From Parvibacter caecicola (GTDB lineage: Bacteria; Actinomycetota; Coriobacteriia; Coriobacteriales; Eggerthellaceae): a stretch of 64,000 nucleotides of DNA. Where the stretch lies: the NCBI RefSeq assembly GCF_003725335.1, contig NZ_QIBY01000007.1, forward strand, positions 50,719 to 114,718. Direction: 5' to 3'. This document shows positions 23,013 to 45,266 of this stretch, one piece after another. The position numbers and the translations under genes were made by a program. Position 1 is the first letter of the stretch. The number at the start of each line of letters is the position of its first letter. The notes under the pieces are model-generated. The model was not told the DNA's origin. It saw only the letters and a list, made by a program, of their open reading frames with translations, and did not search any database.

Positions 23013-23558
23013 CTACAGGTCCACCGAGAAGACCTCGGTTTGGTTGACGAGGTCGAGAGCGAGCTGCAGGGCGGAAATCTCGTCCGCGACAGCGCGGTAG
23101 TCCGCTTCGGCTTGAGCGGGATCGTAGTTCGCATAGCGGTATTCGATTTGCCCGGAGCCGCCGAGGTAGCGGTCGCTCAGCCGCTCTTTCGGCTGGCGAG
23201 AGGCAAGCTCGTTCAGGCGATCTTTGCGGCCGGAGAGCTGGGCGAGCAGGATAAGGGCCTCATCGATGGTGATGCCCTGGTCGGGCAGCGTGGTGTGCAT
23301 GTTGAAGCGATGCAGGGCGTGGCGGATTGTCCGCGCCTCGGCATCGAGCTGCGCCACGCGTTCGCGCACGGCGCCATAGTCGTAGGCGGGCGGCTCGGCC
23401 GTCTCCCCTTCCGCGAGCACAAAGGTGCTTACCTCCTGCTCGCTTCGCAGCAGCCAATCCTTCTCATCCTGCAACCGCCGCAGGTACTTATTAGCACTAG
23501 CCGATGTGAATTCCACAGGCCCATCCTTCTCGCACCGCCAACACAACGCGCCCACCAT
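23013..23558 (-). CDS. Hypothetical protein, predicted coiled-coil
   Basis: 181-aa ORF with host-like GC content and protein-like composition. No recognised domain. Confidence 0.4.
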   Translation of the reverse strand: MVGALCWRCEKDGPVEFTSASANKYLRRLQDEKDWLLRSEQEVSTFVLAEGETAEPPAYDYGAVRERVAQLDAEARTIRHALHRFNMHTTLPDQGITIDEALILLAQLSGRKDRLNELASRQPKERLSDRYLGGSGQIEYRYANYDPAQAEADYRAVADEISALQLALDLVNQTEVFSVDL

Positions 23559-23654: not shown

Positions 23655-24878
23655 TTACGAAAGGGGCAACAAGTATACGTTCTCTCCATCCGTAGCGAGC
23701 TGGTGCGAGTGATTGTGCAGGTCGTTCACCGCCTCCAAACTTTGTTTGAACGGAAGGATATCGGGGGCTTTCGCGCGCTGTAGCTTCTCCATGAGGGCAC
23801 GCGTTTGATCCTCGTTGAAATTGCCGACCCCCTTGCCCGCTTCCTCAAGGGCCCCATCAACGGGAGTCAGGTCGCCCAGGGGCGTCTGCTTGATAAGGGC
23901 TCCTAGTCCAGCGAATGCCGCAGACACGCCCCCAAGCACCACCGCATCGGCCGAGGCCTTCGAGCTCTCCTCGGTGGCGTTGTAACACTCGGTGTACAGC
24001 TTGCGATACTCGTTTCCATGGTCACTAATTTTTGTCGCTACTGCATTCAGATTTGCCTCGTCGAAGTTCTCGCTCAGCATAGGCTCCAGGAAAGCTGCGA
24101 ACGAATACGTATAGGTTGCCAGCTGATACTCTTTCAGTCGATCAAGCACCTCATCGAGTCGACCGCCTACGGCCAGGCGCAATTCTACAGGGCCTTTCTC
24201 GTTCACTTTGGCTCTTATCTGCGCGCGGAGATGGATGATGGCCTGCTCGGATTCCTGCTTGATATCAACAACTTTCATATGGGCATTCTGGCGCCAGATA
24301 TCGTTGTTCCAGTTATAGCGATACGCCTCAAGCACGTCTTCGAGCGTCTTCACGTTACCCCGCAGCTCAGCCTTATCTTTCTGGCGCATGTACTCGAACA
24401 TCTCGTTGACGGTATCCTGGATGGCATCAAGCTTCTGGTTGATCTGTGCAAGCGCAGCCGCCATGAAGAGCATCGTCGGGTCATAGGGCATCGTGGCAAC
24501 GGATTGGATAGAACCCGAATCGATTGTCTGAAAACGAGCCTGCTGCAACCCCAAGTCTGGTTCGTTGTAAGAACCAATTAGCCTACCGACACTTTTATTG
24601 AGACGCGATATGTCGAGAAGATTTCCGGCCTTATCTGTGGCCTGCAACAAAGTAGGCATATTGATCGTCGTCGTAACAGATCGAAACATTGCCGGAAGCG
24701 AACCGAGCCCAACACCCAAAGCCGCCATCTGGCCCAACGGGAGCTTGAAAGCATCAGCAACATCAACCTCAATATCCGTCGCAGCTAGATGGATGTCGGC
24801 AATCGACAGCCGCCTTCGAATCTGATCGGCATCCGCAATGGCTCCCTCCAGATTAGTATCACAATCGGTCATTTTCAC
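23655..24878 (-). CDS. Hypothetical protein
   Basis: 407-aa ORF, lower GC than the core, divergent from the SNF2 operon. No recognised motif. Confidence 0.45.
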   Translation of the reverse strand: MKMTDCDTNLEGAIADADQIRRRLSIADIHLAATDIEVDVADAFKLPLGQMAALGVGLGSLPAMFRSVTTTINMPTLLQATDKAGNLLDISRLNKSVGRLIGSYNEPDLGLQQARFQTIDSGSIQSVATMPYDPTMLFMAAALAQINQKLDAIQDTVNEMFEYMRQKDKAELRGNVKTLEDVLEAYRYNWNNDIWRQNAHMKVVDIKQESEQAIIHLRAQIRAKVNEKGPVELRLAVGGRLDEVLDRLKEYQLATYTYSFAAFLEPMLSENFDEANLNAVATKISDHGNEYRKLYTECYNATEESSKASADAVVLGGVSAAFAGLGALIKQTPLGDLTPVDGALEEAGKGVGNFNEDQTRALMEKLQRAKAPDILPFKQSLEAVNDLHNHSHQLATDGENVYLLPLS

Positions 24879-25157: not shown

Positions 25158-28100
25158 ATGGAACCGAAGTTTTTCGACAACAAGCTCAGCATAGTCAAAG
25201 ACGACCTCGTCCAGACGATCGAGGGCGGAGACTCGCTCGCAGTAGCGGCCGCCACCTTCTCGATGTACGCCTACCAGGAGCTCAAAGAGCAGCTCGACGG
25301 GCTGGACGATTTCAGGTTCATATTCACCTCGCAGGCGTTCACCCAGAGCAAGGCACCGAAGGAGAAGCGGGAGTTCTACATCCCGAGACTCAACCGCGAG
25401 CAGAGCCTTTTCGGCACCGACCTTGAGATACGCCTCAGAAACGAGCTCACGCAGAAGGCGATCGCCCAGGAGTGCGCCAACTGGATCCGCGCGAAGGCCA
25501 CCTTCAAGTCATTCGACGGCGAGGAGGGCATGGGAATCACAGCACTGACCGTGAGCAAGGACGACGACACCGTCGCGTACATGCCCTTCAACGCGTTCAC
25601 CACCTCCGAGCTCGGAACCGAGCGCAGCCATTCGAGCTACGGCGTCATAACCCGCCAGGAGCCTGCGACGTCCAGGATGCTGCTTGAGACGCTCGACAAG
25701 GCATGGGACGACCCTGCGCTTGTGGATGTGACGGAGGCCGTCATCGACAGCATCCAAACGATGTACCAGGAGAACGCGCCTGAGCTCATCTACTACATGG
25801 CGCTCTACCGCATCTTCAACGAGTTCCTAGGCGACATATCCGAGGACGTGCTCCCTGACGATCGCGTTGGATTCCGCGAGAGCCTCATCTGGAACAAGCT
25901 CTACGACTTCCAAGGCGACGCCGCTCTCGCGATCATCAACAAGCTGGAGACCTATCAGGGCTGCATCCTGGCCGACAGCGTCGGCCTCGGCAAGACGTTC
26001 ACGGCGCTCGCCGTGATCAAGTACTACGAGAGCCGGAACAGAAACGTGCTTGTGCTCTGCCCGAAGAAGCTCAAGGACAACTGGCTCACCTACAGAAGCA
26101 ACCTCGTGAACAACCCAATAGCCGGGGATCAGCTCCGCTACGACGTGCTCTATCACACGGATCTCTCGCGCACGAGAGGGACATCCGAGACCGGACTTCC
26201 CATCGGTCAGATCAACTGGGGCAACTACGACCTCGTCGTCATAGACGAGTCGCACAACTTCCGAAACGGAGGGGATTCCGCCTCCAAGAGCGAGGACAAG
26301 GAGAATCGCTATCAGAAGCTCATGGAGCGCGTCATCAAGCAAGGCGTGAAGACTAAGGTGCTCATGCTCTCGGCCACCCCCGTGAACAACCGCTTCCGCG
26401 ACCTACGCAACCAGCTCGCGCTCGCCTATGCGGGCGACGAGAGCACGTGGGAGGGAAAGCTCCGCATCAACGGTAGCATCGAGGACGTCTTCGCGAACGC
26501 TCAGCGCGCCTTCACCCAATGGACGAAGCTGCCGCCGGACCTGCGTACCACAGACGCTCTCACCCACATGCTCGACTTCGACTTCTTCGAGGTGCTGGAC
26601 CAGGTGACCGTGGCGCGCAGCCGAAAGCATATCCAGCGCTACTACGACATGGCGGCCATCGGCCCCTTCCCCAGGCGCAACAAGCCGATATCCAAGCGTC
26701 CGAGCCTCTCAACCGAGAGCGGCACCATCAACTACCGCGAGATCTACGACCAGCTGGAGAGCCTGCTGCTATCCGTCTACGTGCCCTCGCAGTACCTGCA
26801 TCCGAGCAAGGTATCCAAGTATGCCGACGGTGAGACGAACCTGACAATGGCAGGGCGCGAGATCGGCGTGCGAAAGCTCATGACCGCGAACCTCCTGAAG
26901 CGCCTGGAGAGCAGCGTCCACTCGTTCAAGCTCACGTTGGAGCGCGTCCGCAAGAACATGCAGGACACGCTGTCCCGCATCGACGACTACAAGCTCCAGA
27001 AGGCCGAGGGCTTCAAGGTCTCGGACATGGAGGGCTTCGATGCCTTCGACTTCGACATCGACGATGATGAGGAGATGTCCTTCGAGGTGGGCAACGCCAC
27101 CAAGTTCGACCTCGCCGACATGGACTGGCTCTCCTGGGAGCGCGACATCGTGTCGGACGTCGAGAACATCGACATCCTGCTGTCCATGATCGAGGACATC
27201 GGGCCAGAGCGCGATGCCAAGCTCGTCGAGCTAAAGGAGCAGATAAGGCAGAAGGCGGAGAACCCCATCAACCCAGGGAACAAGAAGATCATCATCTTCA
27301 CCGCCTTCGCCGACACCGCAGAGTACCTCTTCGAGCACGTGTCCAAGTTCGCCAAGGACGGGCTCGGCATCGAGACCGCCATGGTAACGGGAAGCGGCAG
27401 CGGCAGGAGCACGGTCGAGAAGCTTCCCTCAGACATGACGACGCTACTCGCGTGCTTCAGCCCGGTGTCGAAGGAGCGCGAGGCAACCGCGCCGGATTAC
27501 GAGGGTGCCGATATAGACATCCTCATAGCCACGGACTGCATCTCCGAGGGCCAGAACCTGCAAGATTGCGACTACCTCATAAATTACGACATCCACTGGA
27601 ACCCGGTGCGCATCGTCCAGCGATTCGGGCGCATCGACCGCATCGGCTCCACCAATGACGTGATTCAGCTCGTGAACTACTGGCCGGATGTGGAGCTCGA
27701 CGAGTACATACAGCTGAAGGAGCGCGTAGAGGAGCGCATGCGCATAACCGTGCTCACTTCCACAGGCGACGACGACTACATCAACGAGGAGGAGAAGGGC
27801 GACCTTGAGTACCGCGAGCGCCAGCTCCGCCAGATGCAAGAGGAGGTCGTGGACCTTGAGGACGTGACGGGCGGCGTGTCCATCACGGACCTCGGCCTCA
27901 ACGACTTCCGAATGGACCTCGTCGGCTACTACAAGGACAACCCCGACATCGACCGCCTCCCGAGCGGACTGCACGGCGTCGTCAAGGGCGTTGAGCCAGG
28001 CATAATCTTCGTGCTTCGCAACGTGAACCAGGATGTGAACATCCTGGGGCGTAACCAGCTCCATCCGTTCTATCTCGTCAACATCGGAGCTGATGGTTCG

Positions 28101-28397
28101 GTCATCGAGGGGCACCTCTCCCCGAAGGACGTGCTCGACACCATGCGGCTGCTCTGTCGAGGCAAGGACGTACCTGATGACGCGCTCTGCAGGGCGTTCA
28201 ACAAGAAGACGAAAAACGGCAAGGACATGAGATGGGCATCCAGGCTGCTTGTTGACGCGATAGCCTCCATCGTTGAATCGAAGGCCCAAGGCGATGTTGA
28301 CAGTTTCTTCTCCTCGGGTGTCTCCACCTTCTTGGAGAATGACATCAACGGATTGGACGACTTCGAGCTCATCTGCTTTTTGGTGGTGAACGAATGA
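25158..28397 (+). CDS. SNF2-family helicase
   Basis: 1079 aa. Walker A ADSVGLGKT, DESH box VVIDESHNFRN, and a C-terminal helicase domain (QRFGRIDRIGS). Confidence 0.85.
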   Translation: MEPKFFDNKLSIVKDDLVQTIEGGDSLAVAAATFSMYAYQELKEQLDGLDDFRFIFTSQAFTQSKAPKEKREFYIPRLNREQSLFGTDLEIRLRNELTQKAIAQECANWIRAKATFKSFDGEEGMGITALTVSKDDDTVAYMPFNAFTTSELGTERSHSSYGVITRQEPATSRMLLETLDKAWDDPALVDVTEAVIDSIQTMYQENAPELIYYMALYRIFNEFLGDISEDVLPDDRVGFRESLIWNKLYDFQGDAALAIINKLETYQGCILADSVGLGKTFTALAVIKYYESRNRNVLVLCPKKLKDNWLTYRSNLVNNPIAGDQLRYDVLYHTDLSRTRGTSETGLPIGQINWGNYDLVVIDESHNFRNGGDSASKSEDKENRYQKLMERVIKQGVKTKVLMLSATPVNNRFRDLRNQLALAYAGDESTWEGKLRINGSIEDVFANAQRAFTQWTKLPPDLRTTDALTHMLDFDFFEVLDQVTVARSRKHIQRYYDMAAIGPFPRRNKPISKRPSLSTESGTINYREIYDQLESLLLSVYVPSQYLHPSKVSKYADGETNLTMAGREIGVRKLMTANLLKRLESSVHSFKLTLERVRKNMQDTLSRIDDYKLQKAEGFKVSDMEGFDAFDFDIDDDEEMSFEVGNATKFDLADMDWLSWERDIVSDVENIDILLSMIEDIGPERDAKLVELKEQIRQKAENPINPGNKKIIIFTAFADTAEYLFEHVSKFAKDGLGIETAMVTGSGSGRSTVEKLPSDMTTLLACFSPVSKEREATAPDYEGADIDILIATDCISEGQNLQDCDYLINYDIHWNPVRIVQRFGRIDRIGSTNDVIQLVNYWPDVELDEYIQLKERVEERMRITVLTSTGDDDYINEEEKGDLEYRERQLRQMQEEVVDLEDVTGGVSITDLGLNDFRMDLVGYYKDNPDIDRLPSGLHGVVKGVEPGIIFVLRNVNQDVNILGRNQLHPFYLVNIGADGSVIEGHLSPKDVLDTMRLLCRGKDVPDDALCRAFNKKTKNGKDMRWASRLLVDAIASIVESKAQGDVDSFFSSGVSTFLENDINGLDDFELICFLVVNE

Positions 28398-29023
28398 TCC
28401 AACTCCCTTCCACCACGCGTGTCGACAGGAGGCTCCCGAAGGAGGATTTCTATCGTAGGCTGAAGCTTACCGGCAAGCAGCGCGACGCCTTCGTCAACCA
28501 GATCGAGAGCATAACCATCGCAAACTCCGTGAAGCCCTCGACCATGCGAGTGTCCGACGGTGCGGAGACTCACGAGATCTTCGTAATCGACCTTGCGCTC
28601 AAGGAGTCGTGCGTCCCAGCCTTGGTCATCGAGACGATCGCAAAGGCGAACCCCCACAAGATCCTTTTCAGGAGCGAGTTCGGAAACGAGGAAGTTTTGT
28701 CGGTCTACCGACAAGGCAAGGAATGGCACACCGACTGGGTTCCGACCGAACTCGAAAGTATCTCGATTCGAGAAGACAACCTCGATGCAATCTGGGACGG
28801 GATATGTGCCGAGGTCATCTTCGGAAACCCCGCCATAAAGGACGTCGACGGAGAGCTGAAGAAGCGCCAGAAGCTCAAGAGCCTGGACGAGGAGATAGCG
28901 AAGCTGGAGCGCGCCCATGGCAAAGAGAGGCAGCTGGGAAAGCGAAACGAGCTGTTCAGAAAATTGCAGGAAGCACGAAGCGAGCGAGAAGCCGTGCTGA
29001 AAGGATGGACATGGAAAAGATAG
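28394..29023 (+). CDS. DUF4391-like protein
   Basis: 209 aa. N-terminus reads RVDRRLPKEDFYRRLKL, with a basic coiled-coil C-terminus. Its start overlaps the SNF2 stop (ATGA). Confidence 0.55.
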   Translation: MIQLPSTTRVDRRLPKEDFYRRLKLTGKQRDAFVNQIESITIANSVKPSTMRVSDGAETHEIFVIDLALKESCVPALVIETIAKANPHKILFRSEFGNEEVLSVYRQGKEWHTDWVPTELESISIREDNLDAIWDGICAEVIFGNPAIKDVDGELKKRQKLKSLDEEIAKLERAHGKERQLGKRNELFRKLQEARSEREAVLKGWTWKR

Positions 29024-31002
29024 ACACCAGGACACCGGATCTTACCGAAGAGAACATCAAGAAGCTCATCGAACTCTTCCCGCAAGTCGCCACAGAGGTT
29101 GAAGGAGATGAGGGGCAGATCGAGAGAGCGGTCGACTTCGACGCACTGCGTGATCTACTGGGGGACGTCGCCGAGGGTCAGCGCGAGCGCTACCAGTTCA
29201 CCTGGCCGGGCAAGCGTGAGGCGAAAGCAGAGGCACGCCGTCCGATTGACAAGACGATGATTCCCTGTCCTGAGAAAAGCGTCGATTGGGATACGACCGA
29301 GAACCTCTACATCGAGGGCGATAATCTCGATGCGTTAAAGCTTCTCAAAGAGACCTATGCAGGCAAGATCAAGTTCATATACATCGATCCACCTTACAAC
29401 ACGGGGAATGACTTTATCTATGATGACGATTTCACGATTTCAAAAGAGAATTATGAAGGCGGCGAAGTTTCTGTGGAAGGACGCCTTGTGGCGAACCCAG
29501 ACAGCAATGGCCGTTTTCACTCCGATTGGTGCTCAATGATATACCCGAGACTACTGATTTCTAGGGACCTTTTGACCTCAGACGGCCTTATCATTGTCAG
29601 CATTGACGACAATGAAATGCACAACTTGAGAAAGATGTGTTCAGAGATCTATGGTGACGACAATTTTATTGCCGAATTGGTATGGGAGAAAAAGAAAAAA
29701 GGGTCATTTCTTGCAAAATCAATTACAACTATCAAAGAATACCTGCTGGTATATGCGAAAAACCGATCTTCTTCGGTAAGCCTAATTAGCGACATTAATA
29801 CTGATACCGAAACCTATCCATGCGTAAATGCTCCAAATCCCAGGGAAATAAGGCGGATTCCAGCTGGAATCGAGAGCAAGTACAAGGAAAAGAACTTTTT
29901 CTTGTCCGAAGGATCCGAAATATCAGACACGACGATGAGTTTGGTTCTCCATTCAGATTTAGTAATCAACGATGGGGTCCTAGCTGAGGATTTGGTTATC
30001 GAAGGAAATTGGAGATACTCTCAAGAAATGATGACCCAGTTCGCGTTGAATAAGGAACTGTATTTGACCAGGGACCTGTATCTCCGCCGTATTGTAAACG
30101 ACGCTCGGTTAAAACCGCTGAAAGACATTCTCCCCAGAGTTGGCGAACAAGAAGCAGGAGCCCGAGGTGGCAGTATCGACCTAGATAAGTTGTCTAATTC
30201 AGGCTGGGGTTCTAACGAAGATGCAGACGAAGAGCTCCGACTACTCTTTGGCGTCCAGAGGCTTCTGGACTATCCAAAACCCGTTCGCTTGATTTTGAAG
30301 CTCCTCGCTTCAATTAGGGATCAAGATTGCACAGTCTTGGACTTCTTCTCCGGCTCAGCAACGACAGCAGAGGCCGTTATGCGTCTTAACTATTTAGATG
30401 GTGGCAATAGGAAGTTCATATTGGTGCAACTTCCCGAAGAAACAAAGACAGATTCTGTTGCAAACAAAGCAGGCTACACCACGATCGTGGAAATCGGCGA
30501 AGAGCGTATTCGTCGGGCAGGAGCGAAGATTGTTGAGGAGAGTGACGAAAAACACTCGCAGTTGGAGCTGGGCTCCGAACCTAAACCAGTCCCCGACATC
30601 GGTTTTCGTGTTCTCCGAATCGACTCGTCGAACTTCAAGGACACACATCTAACTCCAGGACAAGCCGACCAGGCATCCCTCCTTGACGCTATCGATAACG
30701 TGAAAAACGGTCGCACAGCTGAAGATATTCTGTTCCAGGTGCTACCTGCTTTCCGCATCCCGTATTCGGCGCATATCGAGAAACTCGACATCAATGGCAA
30801 AAAGGTCTTCGACGTCAATCATGGTCAGTTGCTCGCATGCTTCGATGCCGATGTGACCAACGACATCATTGAGGAGATTGCGCGGCGCAAACCTTCCTAT
30901 GCTGTGATGCGCGACCTGTCCTTTAAGGACGATTCGGCTGCAGCTAATTTCGAGGAGCTCTTCAAAACCTTCAGTCCCGACACCATCCGCCGGGTGATCT
31001 AG
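29005..31002 (+). CDS. mod: Site-specific DNA N6-adenine methyltransferase, Type III Mod-like
   Basis: FIYIDPPYNTGNDFIYDDDF (DPPY motif IV) and the AdoMet region are present. Overlaps the 3' end of the DUF4391 gene. Confidence 0.85.
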   Translation: MDMEKIDTRTPDLTEENIKKLIELFPQVATEVEGDEGQIERAVDFDALRDLLGDVAEGQRERYQFTWPGKREAKAEARRPIDKTMIPCPEKSVDWDTTENLYIEGDNLDALKLLKETYAGKIKFIYIDPPYNTGNDFIYDDDFTISKENYEGGEVSVEGRLVANPDSNGRFHSDWCSMIYPRLLISRDLLTSDGLIIVSIDDNEMHNLRKMCSEIYGDDNFIAELVWEKKKKGSFLAKSITTIKEYLLVYAKNRSSSVSLISDINTDTETYPCVNAPNPREIRRIPAGIESKYKEKNFFLSEGSEISDTTMSLVLHSDLVINDGVLAEDLVIEGNWRYSQEMMTQFALNKELYLTRDLYLRRIVNDARLKPLKDILPRVGEQEAGARGGSIDLDKLSNSGWGSNEDADEELRLLFGVQRLLDYPKPVRLILKLLASIRDQDCTVLDFFSGSATTAEAVMRLNYLDGGNRKFILVQLPEETKTDSVANKAGYTTIVEIGEERIRRAGAKIVEESDEKHSQLELGSEPKPVPDIGFRVLRIDSSNFKDTHLTPGQADQASLLDAIDNVKNGRTAEDILFQVLPAFRIPYSAHIEKLDINGKKVFDVNHGQLLACFDADVTNDIIEEIARRKPSYAVMRDLSFKDDSAAANFEELFKTFSPDTIRRVI

Positions 31003-34000
31003 ATGCAGTTCAAGTTCAAGATACAGCCATACCAAACGGCTGCAGCAGACGCGGTGACCGCTGTGTTCGAGGGTCAGCGAAGAGTTGAGCTGCTGTCGTA
31101 TATGCGCGACATCGGCAAAGTCAGACTTAAGGAATCGCTCCGGCAGAAGAGCGCCGGTCAATTTAGCCTTGGTGCGGAATTGTCGGAGTCCATGGGCTAC
31201 GGCAACGCGCCGCTCTCCATCAATGCGCAGGAGCTTCTGCGCAATATCAACCGTGTGCAATCACGAAACCAGCTGGAAGAGTCGTTGGAGCTGTCCTGCG
31301 ACATCGGAGCCTGCCAGCTGGATGTGGAGATGGAAACTGGTACCGGTAAGACCTATGTCTACACCAAGACCATGTTCGAGCTCAACCGCCTCTACGGATG
31401 GACGAAGTTCATCATCGTGGTACCTTCCATCGCCATCCGCGAGGGCGTAAACAAGAGCCTCCAGAGCACCGAGCAGCACTTCTTCGAGCAATACGAGCGC
31501 TCGATCCGCTACTTCATCTACGACTCCGACAGGTTGAACGAGTTGGATGCATACTCGCAGAGCGCTGACATCAACGTAATGATCATCAACATGCAGGCAT
31601 TCAACTCCTCCATGAAGGAGGGAGCCAACAATAAGGCGGCCCGCATCATCTTCGACGAGCGAGACGACTTCGGGAGCCGCCGCCCCATCGACGTCATAGC
31701 AGCCAACAACCCCATCGTCATCGTCGACGAGCCCCAGAAGATGGGCAAGAAGAACTCTGCCACCTGGAAGGGCATCGAGCGGTTCAATCCGCTGTTCGTG
31801 CTGAACTACTCGGCGACCCACCGTGAGAAGCACAACATGGTGTACGCGCTGGACGCCCTGGACGCATTTAACGAGAAGCTGGTCAAGCGCATTGAAGTGA
31901 AGGGCTTCGAGCTCAAGAACATGCGCGGCACCGACGGCTACCTCTATCTCAAGGACATCATCGTCTCCAAGAACAAGGCCCCTGTGGCCGTGGTCGAGTT
32001 CAAGGCAATGTCGGCCGGAGGCAAGGTGGTCAAGAAGACCATGCGCTTCAACGAAGGCGACAGCATCTACGACGCCACCGGGGACATCCGCCTTGAGGCC
32101 TACCGCGACTACGTGATCGCGTCGGGCAACGACGGCATCGTGCCCGATCAGGACGGTCGCATCGGCTACGTACGGTTCCTCAACGGCGAGGTGCTCCAAC
32201 GAGGCGTGGTTTACGGCGACTCGGCCGAGGACGACATGCGCCGCGTGCAGATCCGAGAGACCATCGCCTCCCACCTACAGAAGGAGGAGGCTCTCTTCTA
32301 CCGAGGCATCAAGTGCCTATCGCTCTTCTTCATAGACGAGGTGGCAAAGTACAGGGACATCTCCGGCAACGGGGAGACCGTGGGCTACGGCAAGGTTTTC
32401 GAGGAGGAGTACGAGCGCGCCGTCGAGGAGCGCCTCTCCAACCCGACCCTAGACGACGAGCGCGAGCGAGCCTACCTCGACTACCTGAGGCGCGATACGG
32501 CGCATGCCGTACACTCCGGCTACTTCAGCATCGACAAGAAGGGCAATGCGATCGAGAGCTCCGAGAAGAAGGCCGAGCAGACAGACGGTTTGGGCGCGAA
32601 TGACGAGAACGCCCAGCGCGCCTACGATCTGATCCTGAAGGACAAGGAGCGACTGCTCTCCTTTGAGGAGCCTGTGCGGTTCATCTTCAGTCACTCTGCC
32701 CTTCGCGAAGGATGGGACAACCCGAACATCTTCCAGATCTGCACGCTCAAGAGCTCCGGTTCCGAGACCGGCAAGCGCCAGGAGGTGGGACGAGGACTGC
32801 GCCTCTGCGTGGACCAGAAGGGCGAGCGTCAGGACGCAATGTATCTGGGCACCCGCGACGTGCACAATGTGAACGTGCTCACCGTAGTGGCTTCCGAGAG
32901 CTACTCGTCGTTCGTGGACGCCCTGCAGAAGGACATCAAGGCGGAGCTTCGCGACCGCCCGACCGTCGTAGAGATGGACTTCTTCGCAGGACGCCAGGTC
33001 ACACTTCCCAACACTGGCGAGACCGTGACGTTCAGTGAGCGCGAGTCCAAGGAGCTCTACAAGTGCCTCATCAAGGGCGACTTCCTCGACGACAACGACC
33101 GCCCGTCGTGTAAGTTCCGCGAGGGAGGCTTCTTCGAGTATGCCATCGTGAATCTGCCCGAGGACATGCGCGAGGAGCCGAAGCTCCAAGCCGCCGAGCT
33201 GCTCGTAAGGAGCGCCTACGATCCGAGCGCGCTCTCCGCCATGATCACCGACGGCAATGTACCCAAGATCACGAGAAACGCGCTCAACGACAACTACTAC
33301 AGGCGCGAGTTCCAGGAGCTCTGGAAGAGGATAAACAAGAAACACGCCTACACGGTGTCGTTCGACGACGAGGAACTAATCCGAAAGGCTGTGACTGCAA
33401 TCGATGCGAACCTTCAGGTGAGCGAGCTGTCCTACACGATCACTACGGGAACTCAAAAAGAAACTGCGAAGCGCGAGGACATAGAGGACAGGACTCACTT
33501 CAAGACCAAGAGCGCGGAAAGCAGGGCACTTGAGCTTGACGAACGCATTGACGTCACCTATGACCTAGTCGGTGAGGTGGCTCAAGCGGCCAAGGTCACG
33601 CGACGCACAGCAGCGACTATCCTCTCGCGCATTAGCCCCTTAAAGTACTCTCTCTACAAGCGGAACCCTGAGGAGTTCATCAAGAAGGCCAGCTCCATCA
33701 TCGTGGACGAGAAGGCGACAACGGTCATCGACCATGTCTCTTACCACCAAATCGACGAGGAGTTCGACACCAACATCTTCACCGAGCGCATGCCTGAAAA
33801 CATTTCCAAGGCACTCAAGGCCCAGAAGAACATCCAGGATTACGTGTTCTTCGACAGCCAGAAGGAAAAGGAGTTCGCTGAAGCGATGGATGTAGCCACC
33901 GAAGTCTGTGTCTATGCCAAGATGCCGCGTACATTCACGATACCGACACCTGTTGGCGAGTACGCACCCGACTGGGCGATTGCCTTCAACGAGGGTGCTG

Positions 34001-34185
34001 TCCGGCACATCTACTTCATTGCGGAGACCAAGGGCACCATGGATTCGATGGAATTGAGCACGGTGGAGCAGACGAAGATCGCGTGCGCTAAGAAGGTTTT
34101 CAACGAGCTATCGACCTCGCAAGTTCGATACCACGAAGTATCTACCTATGATGAGCTGCTCACAGTAATCCAAGGAGTGGAGTAG
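31003..34185 (+). CDS. res: Type III restriction Res-like subunit (DEAD/DEAH helicase plus C-terminal PD-(D/E)xK nuclease)
   Basis: Walker A METGTGKT, IVIVDEPQ, and C-terminal PDWAIAF...IYFIAETKG. Its ATG immediately follows the mod stop. Confidence 0.85.
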   Translation: MQFKFKIQPYQTAAADAVTAVFEGQRRVELLSYMRDIGKVRLKESLRQKSAGQFSLGAELSESMGYGNAPLSINAQELLRNINRVQSRNQLEESLELSCDIGACQLDVEMETGTGKTYVYTKTMFELNRLYGWTKFIIVVPSIAIREGVNKSLQSTEQHFFEQYERSIRYFIYDSDRLNELDAYSQSADINVMIINMQAFNSSMKEGANNKAARIIFDERDDFGSRRPIDVIAANNPIVIVDEPQKMGKKNSATWKGIERFNPLFVLNYSATHREKHNMVYALDALDAFNEKLVKRIEVKGFELKNMRGTDGYLYLKDIIVSKNKAPVAVVEFKAMSAGGKVVKKTMRFNEGDSIYDATGDIRLEAYRDYVIASGNDGIVPDQDGRIGYVRFLNGEVLQRGVVYGDSAEDDMRRVQIRETIASHLQKEEALFYRGIKCLSLFFIDEVAKYRDISGNGETVGYGKVFEEEYERAVEERLSNPTLDDERERAYLDYLRRDTAHAVHSGYFSIDKKGNAIESSEKKAEQTDGLGANDENAQRAYDLILKDKERLLSFEEPVRFIFSHSALREGWDNPNIFQICTLKSSGSETGKRQEVGRGLRLCVDQKGERQDAMYLGTRDVHNVNVLTVVASESYSSFVDALQKDIKAELRDRPTVVEMDFFAGRQVTLPNTGETVTFSERESKELYKCLIKGDFLDDNDRPSCKFREGGFFEYAIVNLPEDMREEPKLQAAELLVRSAYDPSALSAMITDGNVPKITRNALNDNYYRREFQELWKRINKKHAYTVSFDDEELIRKAVTAIDANLQVSELSYTITTGTQKETAKREDIEDRTHFKTKSAESRALELDERIDVTYDLVGEVAQAAKVTRRTAATILSRISPLKYSLYKRNPEEFIKKASSIIVDEKATTVIDHVSYHQIDEEFDTNIFTERMPENISKALKAQKNIQDYVFFDSQKEKEFAEAMDVATEVCVYAKMPRTFTIPTPVGEYAPDWAIAFNEGAVRHIYFIAETKGTMDSMELSTVEQTKIACAKKVFNELSTSQVRYHEVSTYDELLTVIQGVE

Positions 34186-34186: not shown

Positions 34187-35419
34187 GTGGAGTGCTTCAA
34201 CGGAAACAGCTCGTACAGTATCTTCGAGAACCTAAAAGCACGCCTTAAGGAAGATATATCTGAGTTAAAAGCTGAAGAGTTGGATAGCACTGACAGGGAT
34301 GCCTGGGTGGACTATTGGGAAAACGAATACTATTGCCCTCCTGTTGAGCTTTATCCCGACAACGCTGAGCTTGGCCTGACCCAACAATCGGTTCAGCAAT
34401 ACAATAGCTGGCATCATGCTGCATGGGACGAGCCCGAATACTTTGAAGTTGAAGGCGCTAGGGCAACCTGCAAGGTCCCATATTCCGGGACCCCGTGGTT
34501 CTTTAAGATGCAGCCGTCAACCTTCACGCTTTCAGGCCATTATGCCGAGAAGGTCACCGATCCAGGATCAGATGGTTTTGGTTACATTACCTTTGCCCTA
34601 GAAACCCCACTCGGTAGCGCCACGCCCGAGGGAATACGAAAGTTCTTTTCGGATCAAATAGAAGACTTCTCCGAGCAAATTGAGTGCTGCAACAAGGACG
34701 CGGAAAGCTACAACAATTCTCTTAGGCAAATCATCGAAGCAGCTTTAGACAAAAGGATTGAGCAACTTGATAAGTTCGCTTCCCTTCGACGAGGACTGAA
34801 TCTTCCCTTAAATCGCGTAAAAGATGCTCCTTTGGCCATGCCTCTTCACTTACAAAAGAAGACCCTGAAAGTTTCAAGGCCTGAAAAGATCCCAAGCGCC
34901 GAGCAATCCTACTCTATTGATGACGCAACATACAAACACATAACAGATGTAATAGAAAGCTCCGGAGCCATGATGGAGAGAGCTCCCGAGGCTTACAACG
35001 GCATGGAAGAAGAGCATCTAAGGGATGTGCTATTGAGCGCCCTGAATACTCATTACCAAGACCAAGTGAACGGCGAGGCTTTTCGCAGACATGGAAAGAC
35101 GGACATTCAGATTCCCGTCAACAATCATGCTGCGTACATCGCGGAATGCAAGCTGTGGAAGGGGCCAAAGGCTTTCAAGGACGCGCTCGCACAACTGTTC
35201 TCATATACGACGTGGCGCGACACCAAGGTATCCGTAATCGTATTCAATAAGAAGAACAAAAACTACGAGAAAGTGCTCGACGCAATTGACGAAGTTTTGG
35301 AGGGAGAATCGATTACTTGCGATCGACACAAGCACTCTCAGTGGCTTTGCAAAATACAGAACGAAGAAGATGAAAGGATTATGCACGTAACGGTCCAGGT
35401 TTTCGATTTGTCCTTATAG
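34187..35419 (+). CDS. Hypothetical protein with C-terminal PD-(D/E)xK-like motif
   Basis: GTG start 1 nt after the res stop. TDIQIP...IAECKLWKG fits D...ExK. No other recognised domain. Confidence 0.5.
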   Translation: MECFNGNSSYSIFENLKARLKEDISELKAEELDSTDRDAWVDYWENEYYCPPVELYPDNAELGLTQQSVQQYNSWHHAAWDEPEYFEVEGARATCKVPYSGTPWFFKMQPSTFTLSGHYAEKVTDPGSDGFGYITFALETPLGSATPEGIRKFFSDQIEDFSEQIECCNKDAESYNNSLRQIIEAALDKRIEQLDKFASLRRGLNLPLNRVKDAPLAMPLHLQKKTLKVSRPEKIPSAEQSYSIDDATYKHITDVIESSGAMMERAPEAYNGMEEEHLRDVLLSALNTHYQDQVNGEAFRRHGKTDIQIPVNNHAAYIAECKLWKGPKAFKDALAQLFSYTTWRDTKVSVIVFNKKNKNYEKVLDAIDEVLEGESITCDRHKHSQWLCKIQNEEDERIMHVTVQVFDLSL

Positions 35420-35572: not shown

Positions 35573-37120
35573 CTAAACTGAGGCCAGCATGTCTTTTCGG
35601 ATAAAACTTATGCCCGCCCGCTTCATTGATCTCCATTGGCCCGATAGGCTTCCTTGTTTCAAAGCTTCATAGCAGAATAGCCAGTAACGATCCATGTCTG
35701 TATTTTTCAGCCTCAGAGCGACTTTATTAAGTGGCTTCACCTGCGTTGCATCTCTTTTCCAGTGATTTTGTTTCATGAAATAAATCCATGTCATGGTCAG
35801 AAGCAGACAATCTTTGCTTTTAATTACGTACTTCTGCGCCTCACAATAATCGCTTTCGAATCCATCGAGTACAAAGCCGAACCTAACGGCAAAATAAATC
35901 GCATAGCACAAGCTTTCGTAGTCGTTTAGCCTGATTGCTTCTTGATATATCGTATCCGAAAATTTTTTGATGTCGCCTATGTCTACTCCATATGGGATAA
36001 AAATATATTCTTCCATTAATTGCAGAAGATATGGGTAGAGGACCGCCATATGCATGAATCGCTTTGCTGCCAGCCTTTTCCCATTATTGGAAAGATCTAA
36101 TCCTTTCAACTTCTTAATGGCGTAATTAATTATTGCGAAGTCATCCAATTCCATTGCCAGCTTTAACGCTGTATCAATGAACGTGTTGACTTGCGGGTAT
36201 TCAACCATACCTGACTCACCCACTTTGGGCAAATCGCTCAATTGGTGCTTCCAGTCTTTCTCTGCGCCAATAGGAAGCTCGATGATCCGTGTCTTCTTGT
36301 GATTCAGAAGCAAATCGAATTCGCGAAGCGCCTCTTCGAGGTTTTTGAGGAACCGCTGCCCTTCATCAAAACTAGATACGTAACAACTATAATCATCTAC
36401 ATTCCTAACATAGCGATAACCATTATCGTAGAGCTCCTTGTCTATGGTCGTCAAAATTATCTCTGAAATTAGGTTTGACGCATGGGGCCCAATGAGAAGC
36501 CCATGTGTTTCACCATTACGCATATCTGAACATGCCTTATCAATCCTGTTGTACCAAATATCATCGTGAATTGTTCTTTTCGCTACTTCTTTTCCGACCA
36601 AGGCCCATGGTATCGAATGTGTATAAATACTGGGGAAACACGTGGAGATATCAGCTTTAACAAGGAAACGGCTCACCCCGTTATCGTGCATCAACAAATC
36701 TGATTCCGGATCTCCATCTACTCGCCAGTTCTTGTAAGTCATCTCGAAAATCCGTTTTTCATTGCGCTTTTTACGGATATGGATTCGACTAACACAATAA
36801 CTTTGTCCATCTGTCTGTGCGCGAAAATGAGCGCGTATCTCATCCCAGTCATTTGCAAGTTCACGACATACTCTTTGGTACTTGAAAGGATTAGGGATGC
36901 CCATAAGGCGCGGCACACCGATATTACGCATTGCCCGAAAAGTTATATATTCATTCCAGGTTGCTTCAAATGAATTAGATGCCGTTTTGCAGTAATCGAA
37001 GAAAGGAACAGCAGTAAACACCGGAGGAAGCTTTTCAGGAAAAAACCCATACGCAAGAAAACCCTCATACAGTTCGTCAGAGGATATTTCATCCAAAAAA
37101 TCTATATAACACCTATCCAC
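35573..37120 (-). CDS. Reverse transcriptase, defence/Abi-type, with about 200-aa C-terminal extension
   Basis: RT motifs 2 (KADISTCFPSIYTHSIPWAL), 4 (GLLIGPHASNLISEIIL), 5 (YVRNVDDYSCYV) and 6 (LLLNHKKTRII). AT-rich gene. Confidence 0.8.
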   Translation of the reverse strand: MDRCYIDFLDEISSDELYEGFLAYGFFPEKLPPVFTAVPFFDYCKTASNSFEATWNEYITFRAMRNIGVPRLMGIPNPFKYQRVCRELANDWDEIRAHFRAQTDGQSYCVSRIHIRKKRNEKRIFEMTYKNWRVDGDPESDLLMHDNGVSRFLVKADISTCFPSIYTHSIPWALVGKEVAKRTIHDDIWYNRIDKACSDMRNGETHGLLIGPHASNLISEIILTTIDKELYDNGYRYVRNVDDYSCYVSSFDEGQRFLKNLEEALREFDLLLNHKKTRIIELPIGAEKDWKHQLSDLPKVGESGMVEYPQVNTFIDTALKLAMELDDFAIINYAIKKLKGLDLSNNGKRLAAKRFMHMAVLYPYLLQLMEEYIFIPYGVDIGDIKKFSDTIYQEAIRLNDYESLCYAIYFAVRFGFVLDGFESDYCEAQKYVIKSKDCLLLTMTWIYFMKQNHWKRDATQVKPLNKVALRLKNTDMDRYWLFCYEALKQGSLSGQWRSMKRAGISFIRKDMLASV

Positions 37121-38938: not shown

Positions 38939-41900
38939 ATGGAAGTAGCCTCGACGCTTGTCTCACTTGCCAGCAAATTAGGCCTGTCAAGCTTATTGGA
39001 TAAAGTCAAAAAATGTAAAAAGAACAGGAAGCTACATCAGATTCGAGAAGATTATCTAACTAGGTCTACATTTGTATCATTCCAACAAGCGCCTCTTTCA
39101 GATTTATTTCAAAATAATGCTTTGTGCGAAGAGCTAATTGCCCATTGTCGCAAAGGCGACTTAGCAAAATCCGCAGTAGTTAATACTTTTCTTTACTCTT
39201 CAAAAGAGGCCCCCTCCGAAGGGCGCTTCTTTGATGCGGAAAAGCTTGTAGGTAATTTTTTTGATGAAGTGGCTGCCGTAATATTCCAGCCAATTGACAA
39301 AAAAGACGAACCCCTTTCTGCAGCGATACAAGAAGGCATCGCCGAAACCAGAGAACTTCAGTCTGACGTTCAGCAGAGCTATAAACAAATGGAAGCGAAG
39401 GTTGATGCTCTAACGGCATCTTTGACAGAGCAACTTGGCTTCTCTTCGCTGACGTTACTCATAAATGCAGTAGAAGACGGGTCGGTTTTGTTTGCCGATT
39501 TCGAATCTGCAGTTGAGACCGATAAAAGTAATAGTGTTTCAGGCAAATATCTTTCTGTATACCTCTCTCTATGTAAAGGTGAAAACCCATGCTTTGATAT
39601 ATCGGACTTCAAGGTCATTGGAACTCCTCTTGCTTCCTCACTGGCTTCGTTGGCAATTTCGACAGGGCAATTGAACACCGCCGTCTGCGTTCTTGGCCTC
39701 TATGACGAAGGAGCCAATTGCGCTAAGGCTGTTGGGGAGATTATTAATAATCCAAATATCGATGAAGAAACGAATCGATATGAGATTGCCGCAGATTCCC
39801 CTTTCTCGCCTTTTGCATGCGTTTTGAATGCCGAGCTCGCATTCATGAACAAAGCCTACGTAATTGCAGACGATCAATTCGCATTGTGCGAAGGGCGACT
39901 TAATCCAGTAGCAAAATGTCATAGTGACATTTCACGCATATGCAAAGCAATGCAGTATTCATTGACTTCTATTTCTCCTGATGACGTAAGGAACTTTGCC
40001 GGGGATTTCCCACTGTGGGGTAGCACATCGCTAAAACATGAATATGGAGAAATCCTTGAAGTTGCTCTTGATCTGATTGGCGAAACAAGTGCAGCGGAAA
40101 TCATTTCGTCTCTTCCTGAGGAAGCGCTGCAACACTTGCCAAACGCACAGCTTCAAGCAGAGATAAGCACGTGCGACGATATCGATAGATTGAGACACTT
40201 ATGCGAAAAGTCGTTGATAAAGCAGCTTTTCCCTGCATTCTTTACATGCGCAGAAGAACTTATATCCAAAGATCCCTCTTGCACGTTGTGGTTAAAACAA
40301 CTGGTAGAGAAGGAGGCTGAGAATGTTTTGGTCAGCAACTTTCTTTTCTTCCTCTTCTATGTCGATAAATTGAATCCATGCGTCTCTTATGAAGAGTACA
40401 AGTACCATGAAAGCTGTTACAGAAATGACCCTCGATTTCATCTGCATGCATACAGGCTGTTTAAGAGCAGCAACCCCGAAGAGGCCTGCAGCCATATCGA
40501 AATGGCACTAAGTCTAATGGCCGCAGGGCAGACATTACCGTGCCCAGACTATTCGAGAGAATGGGTTTGCTATCTTCATGAAAACGAACGTGACTTTCAG
40601 GTGATCGACCTAGTCAGACGATTCGCACCCGTAATTCCCGCAAGGGCTTTCAAGTCAATCGCATTTGCTATAGAAGAACCGTTAGATAAATCGGTTCTCG
40701 CAAGAGAGCTCTTCGAGTTGCTGGAGCAATCGGAGAACGATGATCCGGAGCTGACATGCTTGCTTGCGCAGTATCATGGATTTGTTGCAAATGATCAGCT
40801 TAAAGCGCTCAAGTTCGCAAAGCTATCCTTCAAAAAGCGCCCCTCTCTCGACGCAGCACGGTCCCTGGTTTATGCATCACTTGGCTTATCGTTAGGCATC
40901 CCCGAAGAAGTTGAGCAGTATGCTCTCAATCAAAAGAGCACAGAGCTCGACATGCTCATCGCCGAGCATTACCGGAGAGAGAAAAAGGACTCAAAAGCAG
41001 ATTATCTTTTAAAGCGAGCTATTTTTGATAATAGACCAGACTCCCACCGCGCAATTGCCGCATACGGCTGCAGCCATTTGAGCGATGCCGAGAAAGAGAA
41101 ACCAACTAAGATTGACCACAATACCTGCGCATGCTTGGAAAACAAGGAATCGGGACAGCTGGTCGTAGCTTTTCACTCGGAATCTGATTTGATTCCGAGT
41201 GAAGGAGTTAATGCTCTCGGGATGCAGAACTACACAACAGCATCTCCCCAATATCTTGCAATGCGAGATCATGCCGTTGGAGATCGCGTGCAACTTGGCT
41301 CAGAGTACTGGGAAGTTGTAGACGTAAACAACGTAGATGACGTCATCGGAAAAAAGACCATGGAGATAATCGCAGAAGACCCCTCAACGGTGGTCTTCTC
41401 TTCCCCTGATGGAGACATCGAAGATGTGATTCGGCAAATCTCTGAATACATGGAAGAGCACAAACAGCAGAGCAACGTTTATTCTGACGGCATTCGAGTT
41501 AACGATGGCACAGTTGTTTTTCTGGGGATCGAGACAGGGTGTGCGCTCTACCCCATCAAGCCATTTGAGTTTATCCTAAATGTGCTCAAAGGGGATGATG
41601 TCCCATTTCGGAGAATAGAAATAGGCTTTTCTTCTCCCATGACAGGGGAAGAGACGTTTCTTCTCTCTTATAATGCCATCGTTCTTCTGGCTGCTCTTGA
41701 AGAGCTAGGCGTCGACTGTGACCCAATCATGAGTCGTTGCAGCATTACCACATCAACGAAAAAACGTCTGCAGCTAGACATTCAAGATTATTCTGATTCG
41801 TTATACGGCGCTGGGAAAATGGTTTCAGTCGATGGACGCGCCACTCTATTGCAGTATGACGCTGCAGCCAAGCAAGAACTGAGCGCAATTTGCGCAAATA

Positions 41901-42280
41901 CATTAGGCTTTCTTAACAAATTGAGACAAGTTGAACTTGCTCAGATCGATAAGCTTCCTTCAAGTTTCCCGTTTCTTGACCAGAATACGCTAGGCGACAT
42001 GGAAACGGCAAGACAAGGTGGGATGTTTTATGTGACAGAAGACTGTTTTCAGGCGCTTTTCTCTGATATTTCCGAATCCGCCCCTCAGAGATGCAGTCTG
42101 TACAGTCTTCTTATTGCACTCGGAATGAGGGAAGCCGCCCTGTTTGCACTTCCGAAAGCAATGCACCAGTGGGGAGCCGATCCGTATGTTGATGTCAATG
42201 TTGCTAACGTGGTAATTCAGATTCTTGAGTCGTTTACGCAAGGCGCCGGAAGCCCCATACCAAATGAACAAGATACGTAA
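38939..42280 (+). CDS. Large hypothetical protein (1113 aa), AT-rich, predicted alpha-helical
   Basis: Long uninterrupted ORF at about 42% GC in a high-GC genome. No Walker A motif and no recognisable catalytic motif. Confidence 0.5.
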   Translation: MEVASTLVSLASKLGLSSLLDKVKKCKKNRKLHQIREDYLTRSTFVSFQQAPLSDLFQNNALCEELIAHCRKGDLAKSAVVNTFLYSSKEAPSEGRFFDAEKLVGNFFDEVAAVIFQPIDKKDEPLSAAIQEGIAETRELQSDVQQSYKQMEAKVDALTASLTEQLGFSSLTLLINAVEDGSVLFADFESAVETDKSNSVSGKYLSVYLSLCKGENPCFDISDFKVIGTPLASSLASLAISTGQLNTAVCVLGLYDEGANCAKAVGEIINNPNIDEETNRYEIAADSPFSPFACVLNAELAFMNKAYVIADDQFALCEGRLNPVAKCHSDISRICKAMQYSLTSISPDDVRNFAGDFPLWGSTSLKHEYGEILEVALDLIGETSAAEIISSLPEEALQHLPNAQLQAEISTCDDIDRLRHLCEKSLIKQLFPAFFTCAEELISKDPSCTLWLKQLVEKEAENVLVSNFLFFLFYVDKLNPCVSYEEYKYHESCYRNDPRFHLHAYRLFKSSNPEEACSHIEMALSLMAAGQTLPCPDYSREWVCYLHENERDFQVIDLVRRFAPVIPARAFKSIAFAIEEPLDKSVLARELFELLEQSENDDPELTCLLAQYHGFVANDQLKALKFAKLSFKKRPSLDAARSLVYASLGLSLGIPEEVEQYALNQKSTELDMLIAEHYRREKKDSKADYLLKRAIFDNRPDSHRAIAAYGCSHLSDAEKEKPTKIDHNTCACLENKESGQLVVAFHSESDLIPSEGVNALGMQNYTTASPQYLAMRDHAVGDRVQLGSEYWEVVDVNNVDDVIGKKTMEIIAEDPSTVVFSSPDGDIEDVIRQISEYMEEHKQQSNVYSDGIRVNDGTVVFLGIETGCALYPIKPFEFILNVLKGDDVPFRRIEIGFSSPMTGEETFLLSYNAIVLLAALEELGVDCDPIMSRCSITTSTKKRLQLDIQDYSDSLYGAGKMVSVDGRATLLQYDAAAKQELSAICANTLGFLNKLRQVELAQIDKLPSSFPFLDQNTLGDMETARQGGMFYVTEDCFQALFSDISESAPQRCSLYSLLIALGMREAALFALPKAMHQWGADPYVDVNVANVVIQILESFTQGAGSPIPNEQDT

Positions 42281-42450: not shown

Positions 42451-43780
42451 CGTACAATCTCTTGCGCACTTTGACAGCAGCATAGTCTAGATACCAAAAG
42501 ACACGGCTCTGGCCTTCGGTATGATTTGAGTGTCGAATTCAATCATGCTAGGAGGCTGAGCCATGTCCGATCCCATCGTATCATTCGACGAGGCCGCCAT
42601 GCGCGGCGAGCTCAAAGAACTCGTCCGCCAGACGGTCGAGGACACCCTGAACGCGCTTCTCGAGGAGGAAGCCGACGACCTCATAGGCGCAGACCGCTAC
42701 GAGAGGACGGCCGACCGCGAGGCGTACCGCGCCGGCCACTACGAGCGGGGGCTCACCACCACATCGGGGCAGGTCATACTGAAGATGCCCAAGCTCAAGG
42801 GCATGAGGTTCGCAACGGCGATCATCGAGCGCTACAGGCGCCGGGAGACCTCCGTGGAGGAGGCCATGATCGAGATGTACCTGGCCGGGGTGTCCACCAG
42901 GCGCATCGAGGACGTCTCCGAGATACTCTGGGGCTCGTCGGTGTCCGCCGCCACCGTGTCCAATCTCAACGAGAGGGCGTTCGAGGCCGTCGAGGAGTGG
43001 AGGAGCAGGCCGCTGACCCGCCCCTACCCCTACGTCTTCGTCGACGGCATCTACCTCAAGCGCTCCTGGGGCGGCTCGTTCGAGAACGTGGCCGTGATGG
43101 TGGCCATAGGCGTCAACGACGACGGCTACCGCGAGGTGATAGGCGCCGCCGAGGGCTTCACCGAGTCCGCCGAGTGCTGGCGGGAGTTCCTCTCGTGGCT
43201 GAAGGGCCGCGGCCTCTCCGGCGTGCGCATGTTCACCGGCGACAAGGCCGCCGCCATGACCGGGGTCATCGCCGAGGTGTTCCCAGAGGCTGCCTATCAG
43301 CGCTGCACGGTGCACTTCTACCGCAACGTCCTGGCCAAGGTGCCGAAATCAAAGAGGAGCCAGGTGGCGGCCATGCTCAAGGCCATCCACTCCCAGGAGT
43401 CGCTGGAGGCCAGCATGGAGAAAGCCAGCGACGTCGCCGCCAAATTGGACGGCATGAGGCTGGCGGCGGCAGCCAAGTGCGTTCGCGACGGCATCGCGGA
43501 GACGCTGACCTACACGCGCTTTCCAATGCGGCACTGGCGTCGTATCCGCACCAACAACGCCATAGAGAGGCTGAACCGCGAGATCCGCCGCCGCACGCGA
43601 GTGGTGGGCACGTTCCCCGACGGTAAGAGCGCCCTCATGCTGGTGATGGCCAGGCTCAAGTACGTGGCCGACAGCGAGTGGGGATCGAGGAGGTACCCGG
43701 ACGTGTCGCTGCTGGGCGAGTGATCATGCCGACGGCTGACCGCCGGCTGCTGGAATTTGCGCAAGAATCTGGACAGTACC
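42446..43780 (+). mobile_element. IS256-family insertion sequence, about 1.33 kb
   Basis: Imperfect terminal inverted repeats GGTAACGTACAATCTCTTGCGCAC..CAGCAGC (left) and GCTGCTGG..TGCGCAAGAATCTGGACAGTACC (right) flank a mutator-type transposase. GC content is higher than in neighbouring DNA. No target-site duplication was found. Confidence 0.75.
42563..43723 (+). CDS. IS256-family (mutator-type) transposase
   Basis: 386 aa with family signatures YERGLTTTSGQVILKMPKLKG and FPEAAYQRCTVHFYRNVLAKVPK. Confidence 0.9.
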   Translation: MSDPIVSFDEAAMRGELKELVRQTVEDTLNALLEEEADDLIGADRYERTADREAYRAGHYERGLTTTSGQVILKMPKLKGMRFATAIIERYRRRETSVEEAMIEMYLAGVSTRRIEDVSEILWGSSVSAATVSNLNERAFEAVEEWRSRPLTRPYPYVFVDGIYLKRSWGGSFENVAVMVAIGVNDDGYREVIGAAEGFTESAECWREFLSWLKGRGLSGVRMFTGDKAAAMTGVIAEVFPEAAYQRCTVHFYRNVLAKVPKSKRSQVAAMLKAIHSQESLEASMEKASDVAAKLDGMRLAAAAKCVRDGIAETLTYTRFPMRHWRRIRTNNAIERLNREIRRRTRVVGTFPDGKSALMLVMARLKYVADSEWGSRRYPDVSLLGE

Positions 43781-44948: not shown

Positions 44949-45266
44949 TCAACTTTCCCGTTTAGAAAGACCCAACGAATTCATCCTTGATTGGACTCTG
45001 CTCAATTCAGTATTTAACTGTGTAACGTATGCCGCACATACCTCTCCATAAAGATCATGCACGCGTTCTTCTGGAATATCAGCAACGACCTGAATATCTT
45101 CATTGACCATCTGCGCTAGAAGTGCATCGAAGACGCTCTTTACTTGCTCCTCGTTGGTCTCGTCATCTAAATTCAAATCTTGATCTGCTCCCCCAATATT
45201 GAAGCGAAGAATATTATTTCCATTTTCTCTTTGAGTAAGCACCGCTTTAACAACTTGCACTGTCAT
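44949..45266 (-). CDS. Small hypothetical protein downstream of the Ppl-like gene
   Basis: ORF overlapping the 3' end of the Ppl-like gene. No motif. Start uncertain. Confidence 0.25.
   Translation of the reverse strand: MTVQVVKAVLTQRENGNNILRFNIGGADQDLNLDDETNEEQVKSVFDALLAQMVNEDIQVVADIPEERVHDLYGEVCAAYVTQLNTELSRVQSRMNSLGLSKRES

Follow-up and report, generated by a model that had tools for sequence, protein, structure and literature searches.

A probable single-protein phage-defence candidate of the PDC-S54 family in a variable cargo slot behind a Type III-like restriction operon

PDC-S54 belongs to a set of 145 predicted defence candidates put forward by "guilt-by-embedding" (Payne et al., bioRxiv 10.1101/2024.01.29.577857), in a screen where the host operons were those of bacteriophage exclusion (BREX), of the defence island system associated with restriction-modification (DISARM) and of Type I enzymes (10.1101/2024.01.29.577857). 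Here we describe a member of this family in Parvibacter caecicola (Coriobacteriia). The window analyzed is a stretch of 64,000 nucleotides (contig NZ_QIBY01000007.1, positions 50,719 to 114,718), in which the gene occupies positions 34187..35419 of the + strand, TAG stop included, immediately behind the Res gene of a Type III-like operon, and encodes a protein of 410 aa from a GTG start. We consider it reasonably probable that this protein is a self-contained, single-protein phage-defence candidate, lodged in a variable cargo slot of the operon, rather than a subunit of the system the operon encodes. For the functionally uncharacterised PDC-S54 family, a nuclease fold, a set of invariant residues, a modular build and a cargo-slot behaviour are documented below.

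The match to the PADLOC profile PDLC05036 (PDC-S54) ran from end to end (E 1.7e-116, 388 bits, residues 2-409 against profile positions 6-407 of 410), and each half of the protein taken separately matched the same profile. Judged by sequence, the family is not new, because it is already catalogued as the PADLOC candidate PDC-S54. It is nevertheless a large family without a Pfam model or a solved structure. No match to the 410-aa protein was found in Pfam or NCBIfam, and a search of the sequences in the PDB, with a single-sequence or a profile query, gave no relative with a solved structure. A single weak match, to a family of unknown function, was obtained in PHROGs, and no viral structural relative was detected at E ≤ 1e-3. 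Matches to the full protein amounted to 219 clusters at 90% identity, and those to the C-terminal domain to 2,690 clusters at 50% identity, 2,142 of which were at E ≤ 1e-10. Relatives are encoded in 494 of 185,579 species genomes, distributed among Actinomycetota, Bacillota, Planctomycetota, Nitrospirota, Pseudomonadota, Spirochaetota and other phyla; the family is also present on 22 plasmids, haloarchaeal ones included, and in two phage records.

The open reading frame 34187-35419 is uninterrupted, and no competing frame of at least 80 aa overlaps it. The TAG stop of Res lies at 34183-34185 and the GTG at 34187, which leaves a gap of 1 nt, as had been noted in a first reading made from the letters of the window (hereafter, the sequence-only reading). 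A ribosome-binding site recognised by eye, AAGGAG (34172..34177, + strand), precedes the GTG by 9 nt and still lies in the 3'-terminal part of Res. The choice of start is supported by the homologues, which begin at the equivalent residue (M-x-C/L-F-N-G). No terminator-like site was found between the two genes, and the PDC-S54 gene is probably co-transcribed with the Res operon. An identical protein, annotated "hypothetical protein", is recorded in Parvibacter caecicola. Compared with a homologue that is 91% identical, the ratio of non-synonymous to synonymous substitutions (dN/dS) was 0.063 (dN 0.046, dS 0.735); for more distant relatives dS was saturated, with dN still at 0.13-0.24. The low ratio indicates that this is a real gene under purifying selection.

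The protein is made of three modules, all read from the + strand: an acidic N-terminal domain of unrecognised fold (aa 1-203, 34187..34795), a proline-rich basic linker (aa 204-245, 34796..34921), and a C-terminal PD-(D/E)xK domain with a restriction-endonuclease fold (aa 246-410, 34922..35416). The AlphaFold2 (AF2) model of the full-length protein had a predicted local distance difference test (pLDDT) score of 86 and a predicted template modelling (pTM) score of 0.48, the latter because two well-predicted domains are joined via a disordered stretch, aa 210-240.

The sequence-only reading had recognised a nuclease core in the words TDIQIP...IAECKLWKG, which are indeed present as T305-D306-I-Q-I-P ... 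I318-A-E320-C-K322-L-W-K-G326, and it had proposed to examine the conservation of the D/E/K triad among homologues and the predicted fold. In an alignment of 260 family members, D306, E320 and K322 were invariant, together with E275, R279 and E297; C321 was kept in 256 of the C-domains, and E264, Q336, Y340 and D345 in 259. The catalytic Asp, D306 (codon gac, 35102..35104, + strand), stands at the start of core strand 2, in a G-K-T-D-I context, and the ExK motif E320-C321-K322 (gaa tgc aag, 35144..35152, + strand) lies in core strand 3. In the model, D306 opens strand 307-311, and E320 and K322 fall within strand 315-323. E275 (35009..35011, + strand) begins the first core helix, as part of an E-E-x-L-R motif, and the helix after the ExK strand carries Q336-L-F-S-Y340 (35192..35206, + strand). 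This resembles the QxxxY motif typical of RecB/Cas4-type nucleases; the four Fe-S cysteines of Cas4 are absent from the protein. The predicted C-domain has the alpha-beta-beta-beta-alpha-beta core of restriction endonucleases, and its best structural matches were true restriction endonucleases and McrC. Both the observation and the core interpretation of the sequence-only reading were thus correct, including its remark that Res contains a nuclease domain of its own (Pfam RE_endonuc, aa 942-1048, E 6.6e-31). Its option of an inactivated sensor paralogue is excluded, because the active-site residues are invariant. Its option of a Type IV-like or abortive effector is retained. The G-K-T at 303-305 was also considered as a Walker A motif and rejected: the spacing is G-x6-G-K-T, and the tripeptide lies in the hairpin before core strand 2.

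The acidic N-domain is predicted to combine an antiparallel sheet with three short helices and to end in a helix of 57 residues (aa 147-203), and we regard it as a putative sensor, regulatory or oligomerisation module. A profile search with this domain returned truncated family members only, proteins of about twice the query length being apparently outside the reach of that search. The linker, predicted to be disordered (pLDDT below 50 over aa 210-240), contains the conserved motif L-[ND]-[IL]-P-L-x(4-5)-A-P-x3-P-[IV]-x-L-K-K. Conservation reaches at least 90% at L204, P207, L208, P215 and P219 and is complete at P232; the net charge of the linker is +3, for a family mean of +4. In a minority of relatives (P0128, P0168 and P0150), the linker and the nuclease are kept and the N-terminus is another one, and in P0168 the linker motif is retained despite this change. 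Such exchangeable N-termini are the pattern expected of an effector joined to swappable sensing or regulatory modules.

On this anatomy, the effector would be the C-domain, as a metal-dependent nuclease that most probably acts on DNA. Until a cue derived from the phage is perceived, the nuclease would be kept silent or targeted by the N-domain and the linker; it would then cut invading DNA, or else all cellular DNA, leading to abortive infection. Sharing the Res transcript could ensure its expression and its co-transfer with the restriction system, and add a second layer of defence. A bolder version of this mechanism, which we hold to be rather doubtful, sees in the acidic N-domain a new sensor fold for a phage-made trigger, followed by release of the nuclease, so that the protein would be a DNase-based analogue of PrrC. 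Such a trigger might be, for instance, an anti-restriction protein, or a stalled or inhibited state of the ATP-dependent restriction translocase encoded next to it. If this were true, PDC-S54 would serve as a backup for restriction systems of Type I, Type III and ISP as well as for BREX.

The operon upstream of the PDC-S54 gene consists, on the + strand and according to Pfam and PADLOC, of genes for an SNF2 helicase (25158-28397), a DUF4391 protein (28394-29023), a Type III Mod (about 29020-31002) and a Type III Res (31003-34185). The dependence of the last gene on this cassette was examined in reverse, starting from 80 metagenome loci in which Res is 49-89% identical to the Res described here. 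The SNF2-DUF4391-Mod-Res cassette (25158..34185) recurred in most of these 80 loci (L095-L174), whereas the PDC-S54 gene was present in one. The cassette was also seen in L089 and L091. The two closest Res loci without the gene have instead an Avs2-like gene (L095, Res 89% identical; loci are designated by L numbers) or GmrSD (L121, 86%), and elsewhere the same post-Res position is occupied by Avs2-like, GmrSD/HEC-06, PDC-S11, PDC-S48, PDC-M49A or Ppl-like ATPase genes. GC content at third codon positions (GC3) was 0.54 in the PDC-S54 gene versus 0.80 in Res, and the identity of Res remained steady at 85-90% while the PDC-S54 gene was 67-91% identical or absent. Given this rarity, the variety of occupants, the contrast in GC3 and the uneven identity, the Res 3' end is a slot in which defence cargo is exchanged, and the PDC-S54 gene is one such cargo. 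The "hitch-hiking" on Res suggested by the sequence-only reading is borne out by this result. The post-Res slot of a cassette this common could be mined for further defence candidates.

These results bear directly on the proposal that the protein is an integral accessory subunit of the SNF2-DUF4391-Mod-Res system, where it would provide a second nuclease or act as a specificity factor. In favour of such a role, only 1 nt separates the gene from Res, with no terminator between them, and the order Mod-Res-X is held in the closest relatives (L088-L091, L096). However, 79 of the 80 related-Res loci do without the gene, L095 and L121 among them, the majority of the family has no Type III system next to it, and the base composition of the gene is unlike that of Res. 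We therefore rejected the subunit proposal as contradicted by the reverse co-occurrence, and consider it very improbable. The specificity factor, an option raised by the sequence-only reading, is excluded in particular, since the gene does not co-occur with related Res genes.

The surroundings of homologues varied with their distance. All the closest relatives (67-91% identity) were found behind a Type III Res, whether or not the SNF2 and DUF4391 genes were present as well. Relatives at 46-52% identity lay 2-12 nt behind a Type I HsdR (HsdR-X order in L001, L004, L009 and L012). At about 30% identity, they were found between hsdS and hsdR (hsdS-X-hsdR order in L064, L080 and L083), behind BrxL (L022), behind an AlwI or a Type ISP enzyme, or without a restriction-modification (RM) neighbour. 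Some members are thus embedded in Type I RM or BREX operons, the very situation on which predicted defence candidates were defined. Among the 38 non-redundant loci having at least 3 kb on both sides, 10 directly adjoined an RM gene and 15 had one within three genes; these counts are a lower bound, because the hidden Markov models used for labelling were grown from few seeds. Beyond RM parts, no common family was found among the immediate neighbours of 52 non-redundant loci, and PDC-S54 behaves as a single-gene system with no obligatory partner.

Could the position next to restriction genes reflect a physical coupling? A guard similar to PrrC would be held inactive by the neighbouring R/S/M complex (Type I, III, ISP or BREX), and freed as a suicide nuclease once a phage DNA mimic of the Ocr/ArdA type, or Stp, disables that complex. 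The tight and recurrent location in Actinomycetota, 1-12 nt behind Res or HsdR, favours this model, the hsdS-X-hsdR placement in distant phyla is that of prrC in EcoprrI, and the PrrC precedent is discussed in the paper that defined the candidates (10.1101/2024.01.29.577857). Yet at least 23 of the 38 non-redundant loci lack an RM gene at a distance of up to three genes, and a different kind of partner would be needed at different loci (Type I, III, ISP, BrxL). In addition, neither an ATPase nor a HEPN module of the PrrC type was detected with Pfam, NCBIfam or PADLOC, and the structural matches pointed to other folds. Autonomous systems, Avs2-like and GmrSD, use the same slot, so that the slot explains the position without physical coupling. 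We find the guard rather unlikely.

The structural matches of the C-domain to true restriction endonucleases and to McrC at the top of the ranking suggest another possibility, namely a Type IV-like, modification-dependent endonuclease. The N-domain would read modified phage DNA and the C-domain would cut it, complementing the adjacent methylation-sensitive system as BrxU/GmrSD do for BREX. PDC-S54 has no cognate methyltransferase of its own, as would befit such an enzyme, and GmrSD occupies the same post-Res slot in sister loci (L121, L099). It also stands beside the PDC-S54 gene in L008, L088, L089 and L086, but the retention of both genes suggests that their functions are not redundant. The strong acidity of the protein (-16) argues against DNA binding, and the N-domain, which would have to recognise the modified bases, is acidic and of unrecognised fold. 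In our view this reading is unlikely.

Finally, the protein could be a nuclease of mobile elements, serving in the maintenance of plasmids or of integrative and conjugative elements, as an addiction toxin, or in recombination, instead of defence. The 22 plasmids and two phage records that carry the family are compatible with this, as are topoisomerase, relaxase, resolvase, TnpV or transposase neighbours at some loci. Such a context is not discriminating, since defence genes themselves often ride mobile elements. No conserved antitoxin-like partner accompanies the gene, and the strongest recurrent neighbours are RM, BREX and GmrSD genes, which makes a mobile-element function quite improbable.

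Several points weigh against a self-contained defence protein as well. About 60% of the sampled loci were without an RM neighbour in our local labelling, and some neighbours in the RM-free loci are housekeeping or mobile-element genes, which leaves room for a role in mobile elements. The protein also has an acidic net charge, an uncommon feature in enzymes that bind DNA. Among the papers covered by a text search, none named PDC-S54, and neither an experimental report nor an account of its domains or mechanism was found; in a later study, 4 of 8 other PDC/HEC candidates protected E. coli. Moreover, the nuclease activity, the substrate (DNA or RNA), the trigger and the outcome are properties that we infer for the PDC-S54 protein. 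The analysis supplies an anatomy on which these can be tested: invariant catalytic residues, a separable N-domain and a conserved linker motif.

Two potential partners of the PDC-S54 gene were examined and discarded. In Actinomycetota, a gene for a protein of about 150 aa often begins 21-24 nt behind the PDC-S54 gene, but the encoded proteins (a DUF6998 protein, a 149-aa protein in L004 and a 148-aa protein in L014) are mutually unrelated, and a conserved downstream partner was therefore not retained. On the E. coli IncHI2 plasmid NZ_ON960341.1 (L092, 5467-9892), a 344-aa protein matches PDC-S54 over the nuclease domain alone (PADLOC E 9e-38, profile positions 246-407) and has a different N-terminus; its gene is followed by that of a 1020-aa superfamily 2 (SF2) helicase, and a retron is adjacent as well. 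A Hachiman-like pair of nuclease and helicase was considered for this arrangement and rejected, as the pairing did not recur: the Pantoea homologue lacks a helicase downstream, and in 19 E. coli genomes the helicase occurs without the nuclease gene.

Other observations were made on the cassette itself. PADLOC has no model for DUF4391, a domain of no known function, and SNF2-DUF4391-Mod-Res looks like an under-described Type III variant. When Mod (~29020-31002) was compared with those of L095-L174, about 260 of 660 residues aligned in many loci, at 56-69% identity, whereas Res aligned over its full length; this is consistent with the swapping of target-recognition domains. In the sister locus L090 (4114-6827), Mod and Res of this cassette are separated by genes for SIR2 and for a DUF87 (HerA-like) ATPase, which marks a second place in the operon where genes are embedded. 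In L113 (9193-10326), a 377-aa protein without Pfam or PADLOC match is encoded 21 nt after Res and before a PDC-S11 (DUF4268) gene. Equivalents of it are found in L102, L104, L107, L109-L111, L126, L148 and L165, and the two genes may form an unrecognised two-gene cargo.

The cassette and the PDC-S54 gene are part of a low-GC island (about 24000-57000, GC 0.42-0.60) in a genome of about 0.65 GC. The island is a mosaic: GC3 was 0.55 in Mod, 0.80 in Res and 0.86 in SNF2, and a transposase gene (42563-43723) has a GC content of 0.66. The window contains no tRNA gene. Two adjacent genes on the - strand, just upstream of the cassette, encode proteins of 181 aa (23013-23558) and 407 aa (23655-24878), to which, apart from a negligible BrxC match, no family was assigned by Pfam, PADLOC or NCBIfam. 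Downstream, a type 4 defence reverse transcriptase (DRT4) gene (35573-37120, - strand; PADLOC Drt4 E 1.3e-202, Pfam RVT_1) is convergent with the PDC-S54 gene, 153 nt apart. A 1113-aa protein encoded at 38939-42280 (+ strand), between DRT4 and an IS256-type transposase, had no match in Pfam, PADLOC, NCBIfam or PHROGs, and may represent a further defence gene. Further on, a 707-aa protein (45247-47370, - strand) with partial matches to PADLOC PDC-M49A (E 1.4e-32) adjoins a small helix-turn-helix (HTH) protein of the CapH/control-protein type (47377-47865, - strand); the pair is another candidate system in the same island.

How does the PDC-S54 protein compare with known systems? With the Type IIP structural group of BamHI, OkrAI, BstYI and BglII, it shares only 6-10% sequence identity, and it differs from this group in having no cognate methyltransferase and an additional N-terminal region of 245 residues. 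The active site of BamHI uses E-x-E, whereas that of the 410-aa protein has ExK plus QxxxY. Compared with NucC, Cap4, Can2/Card1, Hachiman HamA and Shedu SduA, it has neither a CARF/SAVED nucleotide-sensor domain nor a helicase partner. Like the Type IV enzymes GmrSD and BrxU, it is a putative single-polypeptide nuclease, and it uses the same post-Res slot as they do in sister loci; GmrSD, however, is made of DUF262 and DUF1524 (HNH-type), and PDC-S54 is unrelated to either in sequence or fold. As with PrrC and RloC, the gene lies inside or adjoining an RM operon, on the same strand, and distant homologues have the order hsdS-X-hsdR, as prrC does. PrrC, an ABC-ATPase fused to a HEPN-type RNase, cuts tRNA-Lys; PDC-S54 has a PD-(D/E)xK domain instead and, unlike PrrC, many homologues without an RM neighbour. 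The nearest likeness is with the catalogued PDC-S54 candidate, by the end-to-end profile match, by the lack of any conserved partner gene, and by the occurrence of homologues inside operons of Type I RM and of BREX. What sets the present copy apart is that it is appended to a Type III-like operon, a class of host outside the original screen.
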